Source: a bacterium
GTDB lineage: Bacteria > Cyanobacteriota > Sericytochromatia > S15B-MN24 > UBA4093
NCBI GenBank assembly: GCA_017744355.1
Contig: JAGIBK010000003.1
Span: 54,547-118,546 of the forward strand
Length of the DNA: 64,000 bases
Direction: 5' to 3'
The notes beneath the pieces were generated by a model. The model did no database searches and was not told the DNA's origin. It saw only the letters and a program-made list of their open reading frames with translations. Position 1 is the first letter of the stretch, and each line of letters starts with the position of its first letter. Positions 32,904 through 37,510 of the stretch are shown here, one piece after another. Made by a program: the position numbers and the translations under genes.

Positions 32904-34172
32904 TCAGGCGTCGAGGGCGTGGTCGAACTCGCGCGCCATGATGAGAGCCTCCTCGGGGATGTCGGCGACACCCAGGTCGGTGGTGACCCAGGCCTCGCGC
33001 CCCAGGGCGAGGTTGGCGTCGTGATAGCCCTGCTGAATGTAGGTCTCGCGCAGCTCAGGGTGGAAGAACCCCTCGAAGACGTCACCCGGCAAGGACGGCC
33101 GGGGGAAGATGGGGATCAAGCGCACGATCCGCCGCCCCAACAGATCGTCGAGGCTCTTGTAGCCTGCCGCCAGGGCCAGGGTCTCGTTGAAGGTGTTGGC
33201 GAGGACATTGCCGTTCTTGCCGCGCTTGAGCAGCTGGTGAAGGCGAGCGAGCTTGTCGTTCTCCTTGCGGACCTTGCGGTAGTTCTGGACGACGAAGCGG
33301 CCCGCGAGCATCGAGAAGACCCGGCCCAGGACCCCGTAGAGCGTGTCGGGCTCGTGCTCGGGTCGATCGACCACCGTCACGCCCGACACCACCAGCACCG
33401 TGTCGATGTCAGGATCCATGCTGATCACGCGGCCGATGGGCGCGTTGTCCATCAGGCCGCCGTCGAACAGCATCGCGCCGCTCGCCGCGTCGCGGGTGGG
33501 CGGGAAGAGGAAGGGAAAGGAGCTCGACGCCTCGATCATCCGCGTCAGGCGGGGCTGGACGTTCGCCTCCCATTCCTCGTGGGTGGTGTCGGCGCTCCAG
33601 ACGTAGTCCTCGTAGACCGAGTAGCGCGCAGCAAGCTCCATGGCGTCGCTCAAGGAGGTGGAGCCCATCAGGTCGGTGGCGACCAGGCTCAGCTTGACGG
33701 GCCGCTTGATGACCTGCGGAAGGCGGACGTAGTCCTCCATGATCTGCCGGACGAAGTGGTGGGAGATGAGCGAGGCGAAGTCGCCACGGATCAACTGCTC
33801 GAAGGCGAAGAGGGAGTCGAAGCCGATGCGGGGGCGGTACTGCCGGCGCAGGGGGTCGACCCCGATGCGGTTGAAGAGGGTGCGCAGGTTGCGGCGCTCC
33901 AATTCGTCGCCGTCCATCCGGCCGAAGCCGTGGTAGAGGTTCTGCGCGTTGACCGTCTCGCGCCAGTGGTACACCAGCTCCGACTCGACCGCCTGGCCCG
34001 TGAACTGACCGGCGGCAATGAGCTGGGCCGCGAAGGTCCCGTTGATGGCCCCCGCCGAGATGCCCACGATGGCGTCGGGGTAGATCTGGTGCTCAGCGAT
34101 GGCCTTGAGGACGCCCGCTTCGTACGCCCCCTTGGCGACCCCGCCGCACAGTACCAAGCCTACCTTGCCCAT
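32904..34172 (-). CDS. Patatin-like phospholipase
   Basis: Oxyanion-hole motif GGVAKGAYEAG, lipase serine motif GISAG, catalytic Asp motif DGGLMDN. RBS GGAGGG before ATG 34172; first gene of the operon. Confidence 0.88.
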   Translation of the reverse strand: MGKVGLVLCGGVAKGAYEAGVLKAIAEHQIYPDAIVGISAGAINGTFAAQLIAAGQFTGQAVESELVYHWRETVNAQNLYHGFGRMDGDELERRNLRTLFNRIGVDPLRRQYRPRIGFDSLFAFEQLIRGDFASLISHHFVRQIMEDYVRLPQVIKRPVKLSLVATDLMGSTSLSDAMELAARYSVYEDYVWSADTTHEEWEANVQPRLTRMIEASSSFPFLFPPTRDAASGAMLFDGGLMDNAPIGRVISMDPDIDTVLVVSGVTVVDRPEHEPDTLYGVLGRVFSMLAGRFVVQNYRKVRKENDKLARLHQLLKRGKNGNVLANTFNETLALAAGYKSLDDLLGRRIVRLIPIFPRPSLPGDVFEGFFHPELRETYIQQGYHDANLALGREAWVTTDLGVADIPEEALIMAREFDHALDA

Positions 34173-34262
34173 ATCGTGTCCCTCCGCGCGAGCGCCATCG
34201 CTTGCACCCTCCTTGTACCCAGCAGGCGCCGGATCGTCGCGCTTACAGCAAAGCGGGCCTTA

Positions 34263-34490
34263 TCCGAAAAAATGGCCAAAATGCTGAGGGCAAGTAGCCA
34301 AATATCAGGATGACAAGGTCACCACCTGGCTTTCAGGCCCAAGCTCGCCCCCCGAAAAAGCGCGAGAGCACGCGTTGTAGAAGGATGGACCAGCCCCTAG
34401 CATCGACGTCGGCGCACAGGGGGACGAGCTTCATTGCTCGGGGCTCCCCAACACCGCCGGATGGCCCTCGGGGCCGGGAGGTTGCGAACG
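34263..34490 (+). repeat. Conserved 5' leader, copy A, upstream of the first RGG/aromatic-rich secreted protein gene
   Basis: Shares long near-identical blocks with 35209..35424 (CCG(A/G)AAAAATGGCCAAA(A/G)TGCTGAGGG…, a ~90-nt core …AGAGCACGCGTTGT…CAGCCCCTAGCATCGAC(G/C)TCGGCGCACA…GGGGG…CGAG, and GGAGGTTGCGAACGATGAAACGGGT). Confidence 0.8.
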
Positions 34491-35114
34491 ATGAAACGGG
34501 TGAAGATGTCGACTTGGATCATCGGCGGCTTAGCCGTTACGGCGACAGCAGCTTGCTCGACCGTGGTTCCGAACACCCCCACGGTCAGCGAAGCTCCGAA
34601 GCCCTTGGCGCAAGTCGCCCCCGATCGCACGATCCTCGCTGAGATCCAGATGCCCAACGAGGATATCTTGAAGTCGCTGCCCAAGGAGATCAGCGAAGCC
34701 GATGCCAAGAAACTGCTCGTTACGCTCCCCATAGATAAGGTTGAGGCTCCTCTGACGATGGGCGACGAGCCGTCGCGCACCACCCTGCAACGGGGCTTCC
34801 GCGGTGGCTTCCGTGGCGGCTTCGGCCGGGGCTTCGGGTTCGGCCGCGGCTTTGGTCGCGGATTCGGCTTCGGCCGCGGCTTCGGCCTCGGCTTCGGCGG
34901 CCTCGGCTTCAGCGGCCTCGGTTGGGGCGGCTGGGGCGGCTGGGGGCCACTCTGGTACCCCTACCAAAACTGGTGGTTCCCCTACACTTGGTCCGGCGCC
35001 GCCTGGACGCCCTACTACTGGCCGACCACCTGGGGCGGCTACAACTACCCCTTCGCGTGGGGCGCGCGCGGACGTTGGTGGCCCTCCGTCTGGCGTTCCC
35101 GCTGGATGTGGTAA
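34491..35114 (+). CDS. Secreted protein (possible lipoprotein) with RGG/FG glycine-arginine repeats and Trp/Tyr-rich C-terminal tail, paralog 1
   Basis: ATG 34491 with GGGAGG RBS; signal peptide MKRVKMSTWIIGGLAVTATAAC; GFRGGFRGGFGRGFGFGRGFG… then WYPYQNWWFPYTW…; GC-biased third positions. Confidence 0.72.
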   Translation: MKRVKMSTWIIGGLAVTATAACSTVVPNTPTVSEAPKPLAQVAPDRTILAEIQMPNEDILKSLPKEISEADAKKLLVTLPIDKVEAPLTMGDEPSRTTLQRGFRGGFRGGFGRGFGFGRGFGRGFGFGRGFGLGFGGLGFSGLGWGGWGGWGPLWYPYQNWWFPYTWSGAAWTPYYWPTTWGGYNYPFAWGARGRWWPSVWRSRWMW

Positions 35115-35126
35115 GCGACACCTAGC

Positions 35127-35173
35127 GCGCGCATGGCGCGGGATCCGCTCGGATCCCGCGCCATGCGCTTTTT
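35127..35173 (+). terminator. Rho-independent terminator of RGG paralog 1
   Basis: gcgcgcatggcgcgggatcc / ggatcccgcgccatgcgc stem with gctc loop, followed by ttttt. Confidence 0.8.
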
Positions 35174-35208
35174 GAGGCGCTGAAACACACCAACCCCTTG
35201 GTGGCCCA

Positions 35209-35424
35209 TCCGGAAAAATGGCCAAAGTGCTGAGGGTAAGTCGAACGATCTCGCTGCAAGAGGGGTGGGGACCTCGATCAGGGCCGAAGCCCGCCCCCTG
35301 CGAAAGCGCCAGAGCACGCGTTGTGGGATTGATGGCCAGCCCCTAGCATCGACCTCGGCGCACAAGGGGGCGAGTTGCTCCTCGGTGTCGCCGAACGGCC
35401 CCAAGGGCCAGGAGGTTGCGAACG
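35209..35424 (+). repeat. Conserved 5' leader, copy B, upstream of the second RGG/aromatic-rich secreted protein gene
   Basis: See copy A; tandem duplication of leader plus gene plus terminator. Confidence 0.8.
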
Positions 35425-36072
35425 ATGAAACGGGTAAACATGTCAACCTGGATCGTCACGGGTCTCGCCCTCACGGCAGCCGGTTGCTCGACTGCGGCTC
35501 CGAGCGTCCCGCCCGTCAGCGACACGCAGAACCCGACCCCTCAAGTCGCCCCTGAGCGCGGCGTTCTCGCGGAAGGCCAAGAGCCCAACGCAGAAGTATT
35601 GAACGCGCTGCCCAAGCGGATCAGCGAAGCCGATGCCAGGAAGATCCTCGTCAACCTGCCCGCTGACAAGGTCCAGGGCTCTTTGACGGGCGACGACGAC
35701 CGTAGCATCATGCAGCGTGGTCGCGGCGGTGGGTTCCGGGGCGGTGGGTTCCGGGGCGGTGGGTTCCGGGGCGGCGGGTTCCGGGGCCGTGGCTTCACGG
35801 GTCGCGGGTTCCGGGGCCGTGGCTTTACGGGTCGTGGCTTCCGGCGATTTACGGGCCGCGGCTTCCGTAACAACATCTTCGTTGGCGGCCTCGGGTTTGA
35901 TACTTTCGCCTACTATCCCTACGCCAACTACTACTATCCGTACTATCTGTACGACGGCTACTACTATCCGTACTCCTACCCCTACTACGGCAATTACTAC
36001 TATCCGTACTACTACGGCGCTGGCTCGTACTACTATCCGAGTTACTGGCGCTACGGCCGCCGGTGGTGGTAG
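35425..36072 (+). CDS. Secreted protein (possible lipoprotein) with RGG repeats and Tyr/Pro-rich C-terminal tail, paralog 2
   Basis: ATG 35425 with identical RBS context; signal peptide MKRVNMSTWIVTGLALTAAGC; GGGFRGGGFRGGGFRGGGFRGRGF… then YYPYANYYYPYYLYDGYYYPYSYPYYG…. Confidence 0.72.
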   Translation: MKRVNMSTWIVTGLALTAAGCSTAAPSVPPVSDTQNPTPQVAPERGVLAEGQEPNAEVLNALPKRISEADARKILVNLPADKVQGSLTGDDDRSIMQRGRGGGFRGGGFRGGGFRGGGFRGRGFTGRGFRGRGFTGRGFRRFTGRGFRNNIFVGGLGFDTFAYYPYANYYYPYYLYDGYYYPYSYPYYGNYYYPYYYGAGSYYYPSYWRYGRRWW

Positions 36073-36092
36073 GCAAGGAGCATCTTGCCGAT

Positions 36093-36135
36093 GGCGCGGG
36101 ATCCCGGCGGATCCCGCGCCGCTTCTTGTTTTGCG
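36093..36135 (+). terminator. Rho-independent terminator of RGG paralog 2
   Basis: ggcgcgggatcc / ggatcccgcgcc stem with cggc loop, followed by gcttcttgttttg. Confidence 0.7.
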
Positions 36136-36213
36136 CGTGATTCATTCGTGATTTGGCCGCAACACGCCGCCCTTACCATCGAAGCCGTCAGCCACATCCC
36201 GAGGAGGATCCCG

Positions 36214-36435
36214 ATGGAGAGCCAATCGCCCGAACTGGAGCAACTCTTTCGCACCATCTCCCTGGCCACCGTCGTCATGGCCGTGGTCTGGCTCGGGCTC
36301 TTCCTCACGGATCCCCCGAGCGTCCTCGGCCCGGCCAGCTTTGCCCAACCCCGCCCCGAGGCCAGAGTGCTCGACGCCTACGACACGAGCGAGCGAGCCG
36401 AGACCTTCCGCGCGATGGTCAAGGATCTGAACTAG
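36214..36435 (+). CDS. Small hypothetical membrane protein (73 aa)
   Basis: GAGGAGG RBS 6 nt upstream of ATG 36214; one hydrophobic helix (ISLATVVMAVVWLGLFL); GC-biased third positions. The track's longer ORF from 36085 has an implausible Arg-rich N-terminus. Confidence 0.55.
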   Translation: MESQSPELEQLFRTISLATVVMAVVWLGLFLTDPPSVLGPASFAQPRPEARVLDAYDTSERAETFRAMVKDLN

Positions 36436-36445
36436 AAGGCGGTGC

Positions 36446-36451
36446 TATAAT
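36446..36451 (+). promoter_or_regulatory. Consensus -10 hexamer TATAAT 6 nt upstream of the mnmA ATG (leaderless-type arrangement)
   Basis: TATAAT at 36446-36451; ATG at 36458; no SD sequence in between. Confidence 0.35.
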
Positions 36452-36457
36452 GGCCGC

Positions 36458-37510
36458 ATGGCAAAGAAAGTCGCAATCGGACTCAGCGGCGGGGTCGACA
36501 GTGCCGTCGCCGCCTACCTCCTCCAGCAAGCGGGACACGAGCTGGTCGGGGTCACCTCGCTCAACTACGCCGAGTCTCGCTGCTGCGACGCACGCTCCGT
36601 CTTCGAGGCCAAGCGCGTCGCCGAGTTCTTGGGCTTCCCGTACCACACCATCGACCTGATCCTGCCCTTCAAGCAGCGGGTGGTGGACGCCTTCACCGAA
36701 GGCTACCAGGCGGGCCTCACCCCCAACCCCTGCACCATCTGCAACGCCGAGGTCCGCTTCGAGGAGCTCTTCGACGAGGCCGAGTGGCGCTTCGAGGCCG
36801 AAGCGATCGCGACCGGCCACTACGCCCGGGTGCGCTACAGCGAGGAGCACGGTCGTCACCAGCTCTTGCGCGGGGTGGATGCGAGCAAGGACCAGTCCTA
36901 CATGCTCTACCGCCTCGACCAGCGCCAGCTCGCGCGTGCCATCTTCCCGCTCGGCGAGCTCCACAAGACCGAGACCCGCGCCATCGCCGAGAAGATCGGC
37001 CTCGAAGTCGCCAAGAAGGCCGATAGCCAAGACGTATGCTTCGTCATGGGCGACACCCTGGGCTTTATCAAGCGCGAGATCGGCGATCGCCTCTCGCCGG
37101 GCCCCATCGTGGACACCGAGGGCAAGCGCCTCGGCACCCACGAGGGCATCGCCTACTACACCGTCGGCCAGCGTAAGGGCCTGGGCATCACCAGCGCCCA
37201 GCCCATGTACGTGGTGCGGCTCGAGCCTGCGACCAACACCGTGGTGGTGGGCCCCCGTGAGGCGGTCCTGGTCGATTCGCTCGTCTCGCGCGAGGTCAAC
37301 TGGGTCTCGTGGGCCCGACCCGACGCCCCCTTCCGGGCCGAGGTCCAGATCCGCTACAAGACGACACCCGCCCCCTCGACCGTCACCCCCACCGAGGACG
37401 GCTTCCGGATCGACTTCGACGAGGGCCAGTTCGCGGCCTCTCCCGGCCAGGTGGCTGCGGTCTACGTGGGGGACGTGCTGGTAGCAGGCGGCGTGATCGC
37501 TGTTTCCTGA
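36458..37510 (+). CDS. mnmA: tRNA 2-thiouridine(34) synthase (tRNA-specific 2-thiouridylase)
   Basis: PP-loop motif GLSGGVDSAVAAYLL and catalytic Cys region NPCTICNAEVRF. Confidence 0.92.
   Translation: MAKKVAIGLSGGVDSAVAAYLLQQAGHELVGVTSLNYAESRCCDARSVFEAKRVAEFLGFPYHTIDLILPFKQRVVDAFTEGYQAGLTPNPCTICNAEVRFEELFDEAEWRFEAEAIATGHYARVRYSEEHGRHQLLRGVDASKDQSYMLYRLDQRQLARAIFPLGELHKTETRAIAEKIGLEVAKKADSQDVCFVMGDTLGFIKREIGDRLSPGPIVDTEGKRLGTHEGIAYYTVGQRKGLGITSAQPMYVVRLEPATNTVVVGPREAVLVDSLVSREVNWVSWARPDAPFRAEVQIRYKTTPAPSTVTPTEDGFRIDFDEGQFAASPGQVAAVYVGDVLVAGGVIAVS

Follow-up and report, generated by a model that had tools for sequence, protein, structure and literature searches.

A conserved region upstream of two tandem lipoprotein genes in a Sericytochromatia genome, read as a shared promoter with upstream elements and a short 5' UTR

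We found that the regions upstream of two tandem paralogous lipoprotein genes are conserved in blocks at a fixed spacing and carry a promoter signature that runs through the whole gene family. From these sequence comparisons we conclude that the conserved region is probably a shared promoter with upstream sites and a short structured 5' untranslated region (UTR) that both paralogues have retained. As such it adds one more case to a known kind and does not define a new RNA class. The first-pass annotation of this DNA had proposed that roughly 220 nt upstream of each gene act as one cis-regulatory leader, possibly a riboswitch. That proposal is not supported: its 'core' carries a -35/-10 signature that also stands before 12 related genes, there is no Rfam match, the orthologues share no conserved fold, and the long folds of the two copies differ. 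The genes, their terminators and their upstream regions are arranged as follows in the 64,000-nucleotide stretch of DNA that was analysed (the window):

34264-34490, forward strand: upstream region of copy 1, preceding the ATG at 34491
34491-35114, forward strand: paralogue 1 (p1), an RGG/aromatic-rich lipoprotein gene with its ATG at 34491
35129-35173, forward strand: intrinsic terminator of p1, an 18-bp stem followed by TTTTT
35210-35424, forward strand: upstream region of copy 2, preceding the ATG at 35425
35425-36072, forward strand: paralogue 2 (p2), an RGG/aromatic-rich lipoprotein gene with its ATG at 35425, identical with P0001 (NCBI J7643_09275)
36092-36125, forward strand: intrinsic terminator of p2, with a stem sequence nearly identical to that of the p1 terminator

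Each of the two products has a signal peptide with its Cys, an LPxxISEADA motif, RGG/FG repeats and a W/Y-rich tail, and a Pfam search of both proteins gave a sub-threshold low-complexity match to the keratin head domain and nothing else. The NCBI annotation of p2 (J7643_09275) begins at an internal Met. Because a strong hairpin terminator follows each gene, p1 and p2 are separate transcription units, and each paralogue would be transcribed on its own, from a separate promoter through a 5' UTR and the coding sequence to its terminator. The host is an uncultured non-photosynthetic relative of cyanobacteria, in which this regulatory region is cleanly conserved.

Over about 230 bp upstream of both genes, the two copies align without a gap up to the -10 box, at a fixed offset of 946 nt. 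The range 34263-35424 given in the first pass does contain both regions, but it also covers the entire first coding sequence. Identity between the copies is distributed as follows, with coordinates on copy 1:

34264-34295: 5' block, 29 of 32 positions identical
34296-34334: variable stretch, 11 of 39 positions identical (28%; base-composition expectation 0.27)
34335-34371: mid block, 30 of 37 positions identical
GCGTTG: 6 of 6 positions identical
Rest of the promoter spacer: 12 of 20 positions identical
TAGCAT: 6 of 6 positions identical
The 27 nt after TAGCAT: 23 of 27 positions identical
Shine-Dalgarno sequence (SD) to ATG+12, beyond a 12-nt indel: 25 of 27 positions identical

The conserved blocks are 81-100% identical and are parted by a 39-nt stretch at random-level identity. 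A 28-mer of the 5' block and a 28-mer around TAGCAT each occur at two places only in the 64 kb, in both cases the two upstream regions, with 0 occurrences expected by chance for either. In the aligned N-terminal coding part of p1 and p2, 18 of 32 fourfold-degenerate sites are identical, and since this figure is so low, the non-coding blocks exceed near-neutral sites in conservation. The random identity of the 39-nt stretch indicates that free sequence is saturated, and therefore that the blocks and their spacing are under selection; together with the fourfold sites, it also implies that the duplication is old enough for free sequence to have been randomised. The block-wise conservation described in the first pass is thus confirmed for both regions, with the flanking 39 nt at 28%, and its suggestion that the blocks are functionally constrained holds against both the variable stretch and the fourfold sites. 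It is highly unlikely that the similarity is a functionless, neutral remnant of a recent tandem duplication or gene conversion. The entire unit was indeed duplicated, terminator stems included, but the random-level identity of the intervening non-coding sequence and the strong divergence of synonymous sites largely refute this explanation. Moreover, the GCGTTG, TAG..T and ATGGCCAAR positions are conserved in other genomes in which mnmA is only 62% identical, so gene conversion within one genome cannot account for the conservation.

To place the window among its relatives, we collected 12 orthologous loci from the contigs of protein matches and from genome and metagenome collections scanned with the motif LPx[RQE]ISEADA. 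The family as a whole proved too variable for its full alignment to be used as a search query. A protein search with p1 had returned seven relatives only, one of them P0001, which is p2 itself. No relative was found among the GTDB representatives scanned with the two window N-termini, which indicates that close kin of the window genome are not among these representatives, and neither search yielded a closer relative of this genome. Two of the loci (L006 and L007) are from metagenome-assembled genomes of Candidatus Sericytochromatia and have three and two tandem family genes, respectively, directly upstream of mnmA, as in the window; the mnmA product of the window is 62% identical to that of an orthologous Candidatus Sericytochromatia locus. 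Tandem family copies also occur at L011 (three) and L008 (two). On the basis of these four arrays, we regard tandem copies that each have a control region of their own as an old and conserved arrangement of the lineage. The leader sequence as such is not shared with other genomes; what they have in common with the window is the promoter signature and, from the 5' block, ATGGCCAAR.TGC.GAGG.

The promoter signature accounts for the segment that had been described as the core of the leader, and its two predicted instances in the window are:

34372-34403, forward strand: predicted promoter of copy 1, GCGTTG with the -35 element TTGTAG at 34375-34380, a 17-nt spacer and the -10 element TAGCAT at 34398-34403
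35318-35349, forward strand: predicted promoter of copy 2, GCGTTG with the -35 element TTGTGG at 35321-35326, a 17-nt spacer and the -10 element TAGCAT at 35344-35349

An exact search for GCGTTG-N20-TAGNNT matched the window twice, at the two predicted promoters, and the 12 fetched loci at eight sites, all of them directly upstream of family genes. For 14 family genes of Sericytochromatia, the 400 nt preceding each gene were aligned with G[CT][GA]TTG as the anchor. The pattern of GCGTTG, 20 nt and TAGnnT was present in all 14 copies (two from the window and 12 from other genomes or metagenomes), with slight deviations in four orthologous copies: two of them differ by one base in the GCGTTG box, and in three the TAGnnT box is replaced by TTAGCT, TTACCT or TAAGTT. 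Across copies the -10 box is mostly TAGCCT, with TAGCTT, TAGTTT, TAGAGT, TAAGTT, TTACCT and TTAGCT as further forms, at a distance of 65-101 nt from the ATG. Only TTG and TA...T are invariant, and the 17-nt spacer is variable in sequence and constant in length. These invariant positions are the ones most important for sigma-70-type recognition, and a spacer of fixed length and free sequence would not be expected of an RNA motif.

Both window copies thus have a -35 TTGnnn and a -10 TAnnnT within 17±1 bp of each other, and the orthologues keep the hexamers and their spacing while the spacer sequence varies. We therefore read the 'core' as a predicted sigma-70-family promoter, with its -35 element (TTGTAG or TTGTGG) set in the invariant GCGTTG, a 17-bp spacer and the -10 element TAGCAT. 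The window hexamers score 7 of 12 against the E. coli consensus, and it is because of this low score that a promoter scan with the E. coli consensus did not report the promoters of the RGG genes. Since the hexamers are weak by that measure, the promoter call rests on the comparative footprint. Other genes of the lineage fit the same picture: mnmA in the window has the layout TGCTATAAT-N6-ATG, and the gene divergent from the first array copy at L006, L008, L011 and L007, which we take to be nfi-like from its N-terminus alone, has TAGACT, TAATCT or TAGGAT followed by N6 and ATG, a leaderless-type layout. From these sequences, this Sericytochromatia lineage clearly appears to use TAnnnT -10 boxes. 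A sigma-54 promoter was also considered and rejected by inspection, as TGGCAC-N5-TTGC calls for a GG/GC spacing that neither the 5' block nor the core has. The complementarity between CCCCT and AGGGG pointed out in the first pass is present in the sequence, but its CCCCT lies in the predicted promoter spacer.

Upstream of the promoter, two further blocks are conserved in each copy:

34264-34295, forward strand: far-upstream 5' block of copy 1, CCGAAAAAATGGCCAAAATGCTGAGGGCAAGT, at about -146 to -115 from the predicted start
34335-34371, forward strand: mid block of copy 1, at about -75 to -39, ending in GAGAGCAC, which adjoins the -35 element
35210-35241, forward strand: far-upstream 5' block of copy 2, CCGGAAAAATGGCCAAAGTGCTGAGGGTAAGT, containing GGGTAAGT at 35234-35241
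35281-35317, forward strand: mid block of copy 2, at an offset of 946 from copy 1

The part ATGGCCAAAATGCTGAGGG of the 5' block is identical at 16 of 19 positions to ATGGCCAAGATGCCGAGGA, which stands just before the T-tract of copy C at L006; the window element is 45 nt closer to its promoter than this counterpart, and GCAAGT/GTAAGT replaces the T-tract. The purine-rich CAGCAGAGGGA is conserved in the orthologues directly before GCGTTG, in the same place as the end of the mid block. In general, the alignment of three paralogue classes from several genomes has no gap over the 160 nt that precede the -10 box, and in 10 of 11 full-length copies a T-tract, with GG(C/T)C after it, has its start at a distance of 126-128 nt from GCGTTG; in the window, the related ATGGCCAAA element lies 100 bp before the GCGTTG box. 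For 11 gapless orthologous upstream regions, RNAalifold gave -0.49 kcal/mol, hardly unlike column shuffles, and no consensus RNA fold, and there was no codon-phase bias in the orthologues' upstream region, where substitutions numbered 1431, 1492 and 1471 across the three phases. Given this lack of both a fold and a codon periodicity, we conclude that the orthologues' upstream region behaves like DNA under a spacing constraint, and unlike either RNA or coding sequence. Most likely, then, both the 5' block and the mid block are upstream DNA control elements, probably protein-binding sites. A shared regulator probably binds them at their constant distance from the promoter, and would keep the paralogues co-regulated. 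Three other ideas about these elements were dropped. The 5' block matches the orthologous T-tract motif of L008_B (CAGCATTTTTGGCC) in reverse orientation, but the same-orientation match to copy C of L006 is better, so an inversion is not needed. A helical-phase relation (105 and 126 bp) is weakened by the homologous element lying 45 nt closer to the window promoter, and the only other TGGCCAAAR site in the window falls inside a coding sequence, so we do not regard this sequence as enriched.

The lack of codon periodicity also bears on whether the blocks encode small upstream peptides, either MAKMLR... from the 5' block or an upstream open reading frame (uORF) right after TAGnnT. In favour of this are the conservation of ATGGCCAAR, an NTG directly after the -10 hexamer in 10 of 12 orthologous copies, and differences between L010_C and L011_C that are mostly at third positions in the frame after the -10 box. 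However, the equal numbers of substitutions in the three phases are joined by a stop after 13 codons in the copy 1 reading frame of the 5' block, by uORF start codons that vary among ATG, GTG, CTG, TTG and none, with no NTG directly after the -10 box in the window, by peptides that are not conserved between paralogue classes, and by class B differences that are compensatory in a hairpin and non-synonymous. We thus rejected both reading frames and give encoded peptides next to no probability. The short peptides sharing QPLASTSAH, which the first pass had put down to nucleotide conservation, are indeed best read as its by-products, as the equivalent region of the orthologues has no codon periodicity.

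Repressor-type DNA looping between copies of an operator is well known from lac, gal and ara, and the 5' block and the -10 region could likewise be inverted copies of one operator, with a repressor bound at the two sites and a DNA loop of about 105 bp between them. We consider this decidedly improbable. The sequence ATGCTGAGGGCAAGT matches the reverse complement of the -10 region, ATGCTAGGGGCTGGT, at 11 of 15 positions, and the spacing is fixed and gapless despite the randomised 39-nt segment, but a match this short could be due to chance, the inverted match is absent from the orthologues, and the neighbouring genes include no evident regulator. The modestly unusual part of the locus is the fixed-length upstream module itself, which is shared across Sericytochromatia and specific to the family. 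There is a small chance that this module (about 160 bp gapless in the orthologues, with a T-tract and TGGCC element) uses a dedicated regulator or an alternative sigma factor together with looping or, alternatively, that the 5' block serves as a SigF-like second promoter and yields a long transcript, which alters expression by pairing with the sequence of the -10 region.

A SigF-type reading draws on Synechocystis PCC 6803, where the promoters of SigF, a group 3 sigma factor, have an AG-rich tract, TAGGC at -32 and GGGTAAG at -12, and where SigF controls surface and secreted proteins (PMC2532724). Copy 2 of the 5' block contains GGGTAAGT, which occurs in the window at 35234-35241 only and matches the -12 box of these promoters (PMC2532724). 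Measured against the SigF-type pattern of GGGTA[AG] at -12, [CT]AGGC 10-30 nt upstream and an AG-rich context (PMC2532724), however, copy 2 has this box without an AGGC upstream, and copy 1 has GGGCAAGT, in which the key T is C. The box is also missing from the counterpart at L006, which has only ATGGCCAAR.TGC.GAGG in common with the window element.

The same box is one of three points in favour of a promoter that coincides with the 5' block or shortly precedes it, from which a structured leader of about 220 nt (a riboswitch, an attenuator or an sRNA target) would control the gene. In addition, each copy allows AUGCUGAGGGC of the 5' block to pair with GCCCCUAGCAU of the -10 region, with both block substitutions kept as pairs through G-U, and G- and C-runs in a long leader could form alternative pairings with the SD. 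We nevertheless judge such a leader quite unlikely. The comparison with Rfam that the first pass had suggested gave no match at gathering score in the whole window, and a permissive scan of 34100-36200 gave chance-level matches only (E > 5). Neither leader has a terminator-like site on the forward strand, and no expression platform of a riboswitch or attenuator, be it a leader terminator or an SD-sequestering helix that alternates with another pairing, was found. The upstream 140 nt have folding z-scores of -0.25 and -1.53, the long-leader folds differ between the copies, and SD accessibility is inconsistent between them. The covariance that the first pass had looked to as evidence was likewise not found, as the 11 orthologous upstream regions lack a consensus fold and the two window copies show no double compensatory change. 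Finally, the 'core' has the pattern of a promoter and not that of an RNA motif.

With the predicted promoter as the point of origin, the transcript would carry a short leader in each copy:

34410-34490, forward strand: predicted 5' UTR of copy 1, about 81 nt, with the SD GGGAGG at 34476-34481; predicted stems are an outer stem (34409-34414/34455-34460), an inner stem (34420-34425/34443-34449) and a small hairpin (34463-34467/34471-34475)
35356-35424, forward strand: predicted 5' UTR of copy 2, about 69 nt, with the SD AGGAGG at 35410-35415; predicted stems are an outer stem (35355-35360/35389-35394), an inner stem (35366-35371/35377-35383) and a small hairpin (35397-35401/35405-35409)

The transcription start was predicted at 6-8 nt downstream of the -10 box, and would thus lie near 34410 and 35356, which means that about two thirds of the conserved region is upstream of the likely start. 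The first pass had named promoter duplication as an outcome that would speak against a leader, and the blocks do lie mostly upstream of the likely start, but the duplication is not recent, as the intervening sequence has been randomised. On the two UTR copies, RNAalifold predicts a consensus fold of 17 pairs, in which UCGGCG/CGCCGR form the outer stem, GGGGRC/GCUCCY form the inner stem, and GGCCC-NNN-GGGCC makes a 5-bp hairpin that ends at the SD. The apical loop takes up the 12-nt indel between the copies, the small hairpin has identical stems but a loop changed at each of its three bases, and the three differences within stems are one-sided and keep the pairing; a double compensatory change between the two window UTRs was not found. 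The minimum free energies are not clearly better than those of shuffled sequences (z-scores of -0.42 for copy 1 and -1.95 for copy 2). In the orthologues, the UTR sequence differs by paralogue class, each class has its own stable hairpin, and the hairpins of classes A and C contain two compensatory pairs each. A short structured leader is therefore plausible as a prediction from folding. The UTR would begin with a conserved stem-loop that may protect the 5' end of the mRNA, and the 5-bp hairpin ending at the SD may keep the ribosome-binding site accessible. Taken together, the family-wide promoter signature, the predicted UTR stems shared by both copies and the conservation from SD to ATG (25 of 27) agree with the part of the first-pass suggestion in which the blocks include a promoter, a structured leader and an RBS-start block. 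Against the promoter model as a whole we count the 7 of 12 hexamer score, the weak UTR z-scores, the complementarity between the 5' block and the -10 region, and GGGTAAGT in copy 2.

As a result, a candidate riboswitch is removed from the list and an ordinary regulatory region takes its place. What has been gained is a comparative promoter footprint, GCGTTG-N20-TAGnnT with upstream elements at a fixed distance, which would mark a co-regulated, lineage-specific family of low-complexity surface lipoproteins.

Compared with known systems, the region resembles the riboswitches and attenuators of Rfam in having conserved non-coding sequence with pairing potential upstream of a gene, but it differs from them in lacking a model match, an expression platform and a fold conserved in relatives, and in that the greater part of its conserved sequence lies upstream of the likely start. 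The predicted UTRs are closer to the 5'-terminal stem-loops that stabilise mRNAs, of which the 5' UTR of E. coli ompA is an example: here, too, a stem-loop is predicted within a few nt of the likely 5' end of a gene of the abundant envelope-protein type, and a second small hairpin adjoins the SD. They differ in that the 5' end is a predicted one and the folding energy of copy 1 is not better than that of shuffled sequence. As to the SigF promoters, the orthologous promoters have GGGTAGCCT, in one case ATAAGTT, after the purine-rich CAGCAGAGGGAG, and with their GGGTAG and purine tract these orthologous proximal promoters resemble the SigF type more than the window promoter does; in the window, the proximal -10 box is preceded by CCCC and not GGG (CCCTAG), and there is no TAGGC at the right distance. 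The likeness is to sigma-70-family promoters with upstream sites, with which the region shares the invariant TTG and TA...T, a 17-bp spacer of free sequence, a position 65-101 nt before the start codon, and conserved DNA both adjoining the -35 element on its upstream side and farther upstream. It differs from them in that the -35 element is set inside a longer invariant GCGTTG with a purine-rich tract upstream, and the family hexamers, TTGyCn and TAGCCT/TAGCAT, are far from the E. coli sigma-70 consensus.

The lipoprotein paralogues form a lineage-specific family of Candidatus Sericytochromatia, in which they occur two to three per tandem array. Every member has the same protein layout, in which a signal peptide and Cys are combined with an LPxxISEADA motif, with RGG/FG repeats and with a tail rich in Tyr and Trp. 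No Pfam domain match was found for the family, and a search of 5.8 billion proteins returned only about seven relatives. The arrays adjoin mnmA, and in the fetched loci L006, L007, L008 and L011 they are divergent from a gene that we read as nfi-like, judging from its N-terminus only. The tandem arrays are as follows:

Window 34491-36072, forward strand: tandem array of paralogues 1 and 2
L006 1974-4556: tandem array
L007 2049-3543: tandem array
L011 581-3085: tandem array
L008 559-1823: tandem array

Paralogue 1 (window 34491-35114) appears to be unannotated in the source MAG, because no identical entry was found for it in the protein collection. Paralogue 2 is P0001 (J7643_09275), whose annotated start is an internal Met (MSTW...); the ATG supported by a Shine-Dalgarno sequence (SD) lies at 35425, five codons upstream of it (35425-35439). 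When the window terminator hairpins at 35137-35162 and 36095-36120 were compared, their stem sequences were almost identical (GGCGCGGGATCC...GGATCCCGCGCC), unlike the neighbouring non-coding sequence, which is randomised. Between paralogue 2 and mnmA lies a small ORF (36215-36435; 71 aa from the ATG at 36215), for which a single hydrophobic helix is predicted. It has no Pfam match, and no counterpart was seen at the equivalent place in L006 and L007.

Upstream of the orthologous promoters (L006, L007, L008, L010 and L011), we observed a T-tract with GG(C/T)C after it, 126-128 nt before the GCGTTG box that holds the predicted -35 TTG. This distance is almost invariant in 10 of the 11 full-length copies, and the upstream 160 bp align without gaps throughout, although conservation is poor over much of the stretch. 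Short dyads often flank the T-tract element, with differing sequences (GGCC/GGCC, GACCA/TGGTC and CCGA/TCGG).

In 10 of the 12 orthologous copies, the -10 hexamer is immediately followed by an NTG that opens a short frame (ATG in six, CTG in two, GTG and TTG in one each); this NTG is absent from the window. The following positions and their equivalents carry it:

L006 3920: NTG after the -10 hexamer
L007 2917: NTG after the -10 hexamer
L010 362: NTG after the -10 hexamer
L011 2415: NTG after the -10 hexamer

Such short frames are exemplified by MNHIRKRVTKAEP, MPHRRQLVKT. In paralogue class A and in copy C of L011, the TGA that closes the frame overlaps the main ATG. Provided that the promoter call holds, the short frame is probably not translated.

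A more distant family branch adjoins fliD in L001, L003 and L004. Its genes also form tandem pairs, each gene having its own upstream region, with a different, AT-richer pattern: TTTCCCT...TTGAT(G/A) and, after 19-20 nt, one of TAGAAT, TAGTAT and TAACAT, which lies about 70-78 nt 5' of the ATG. These regions include:

L001 3840-3975 and 4640-4781: distant-branch upstream regions
L004: distant-branch upstream region
L005 3880-4000: distant-branch upstream region

Finally, mnmA in the window apparently lacks an SD, and what appears to be its extended -10 promoter (36441-36460, TGCTATAAT) lies only 6 nt 5' of the ATG. In L006, L008, L011 and L007, the nfi-like gene that precedes the arrays is arranged in the same way, with TAGACT, TAATCT or TAGGAT followed by N6-ATG. 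This promoter-to-ATG arrangement is of the leaderless type.
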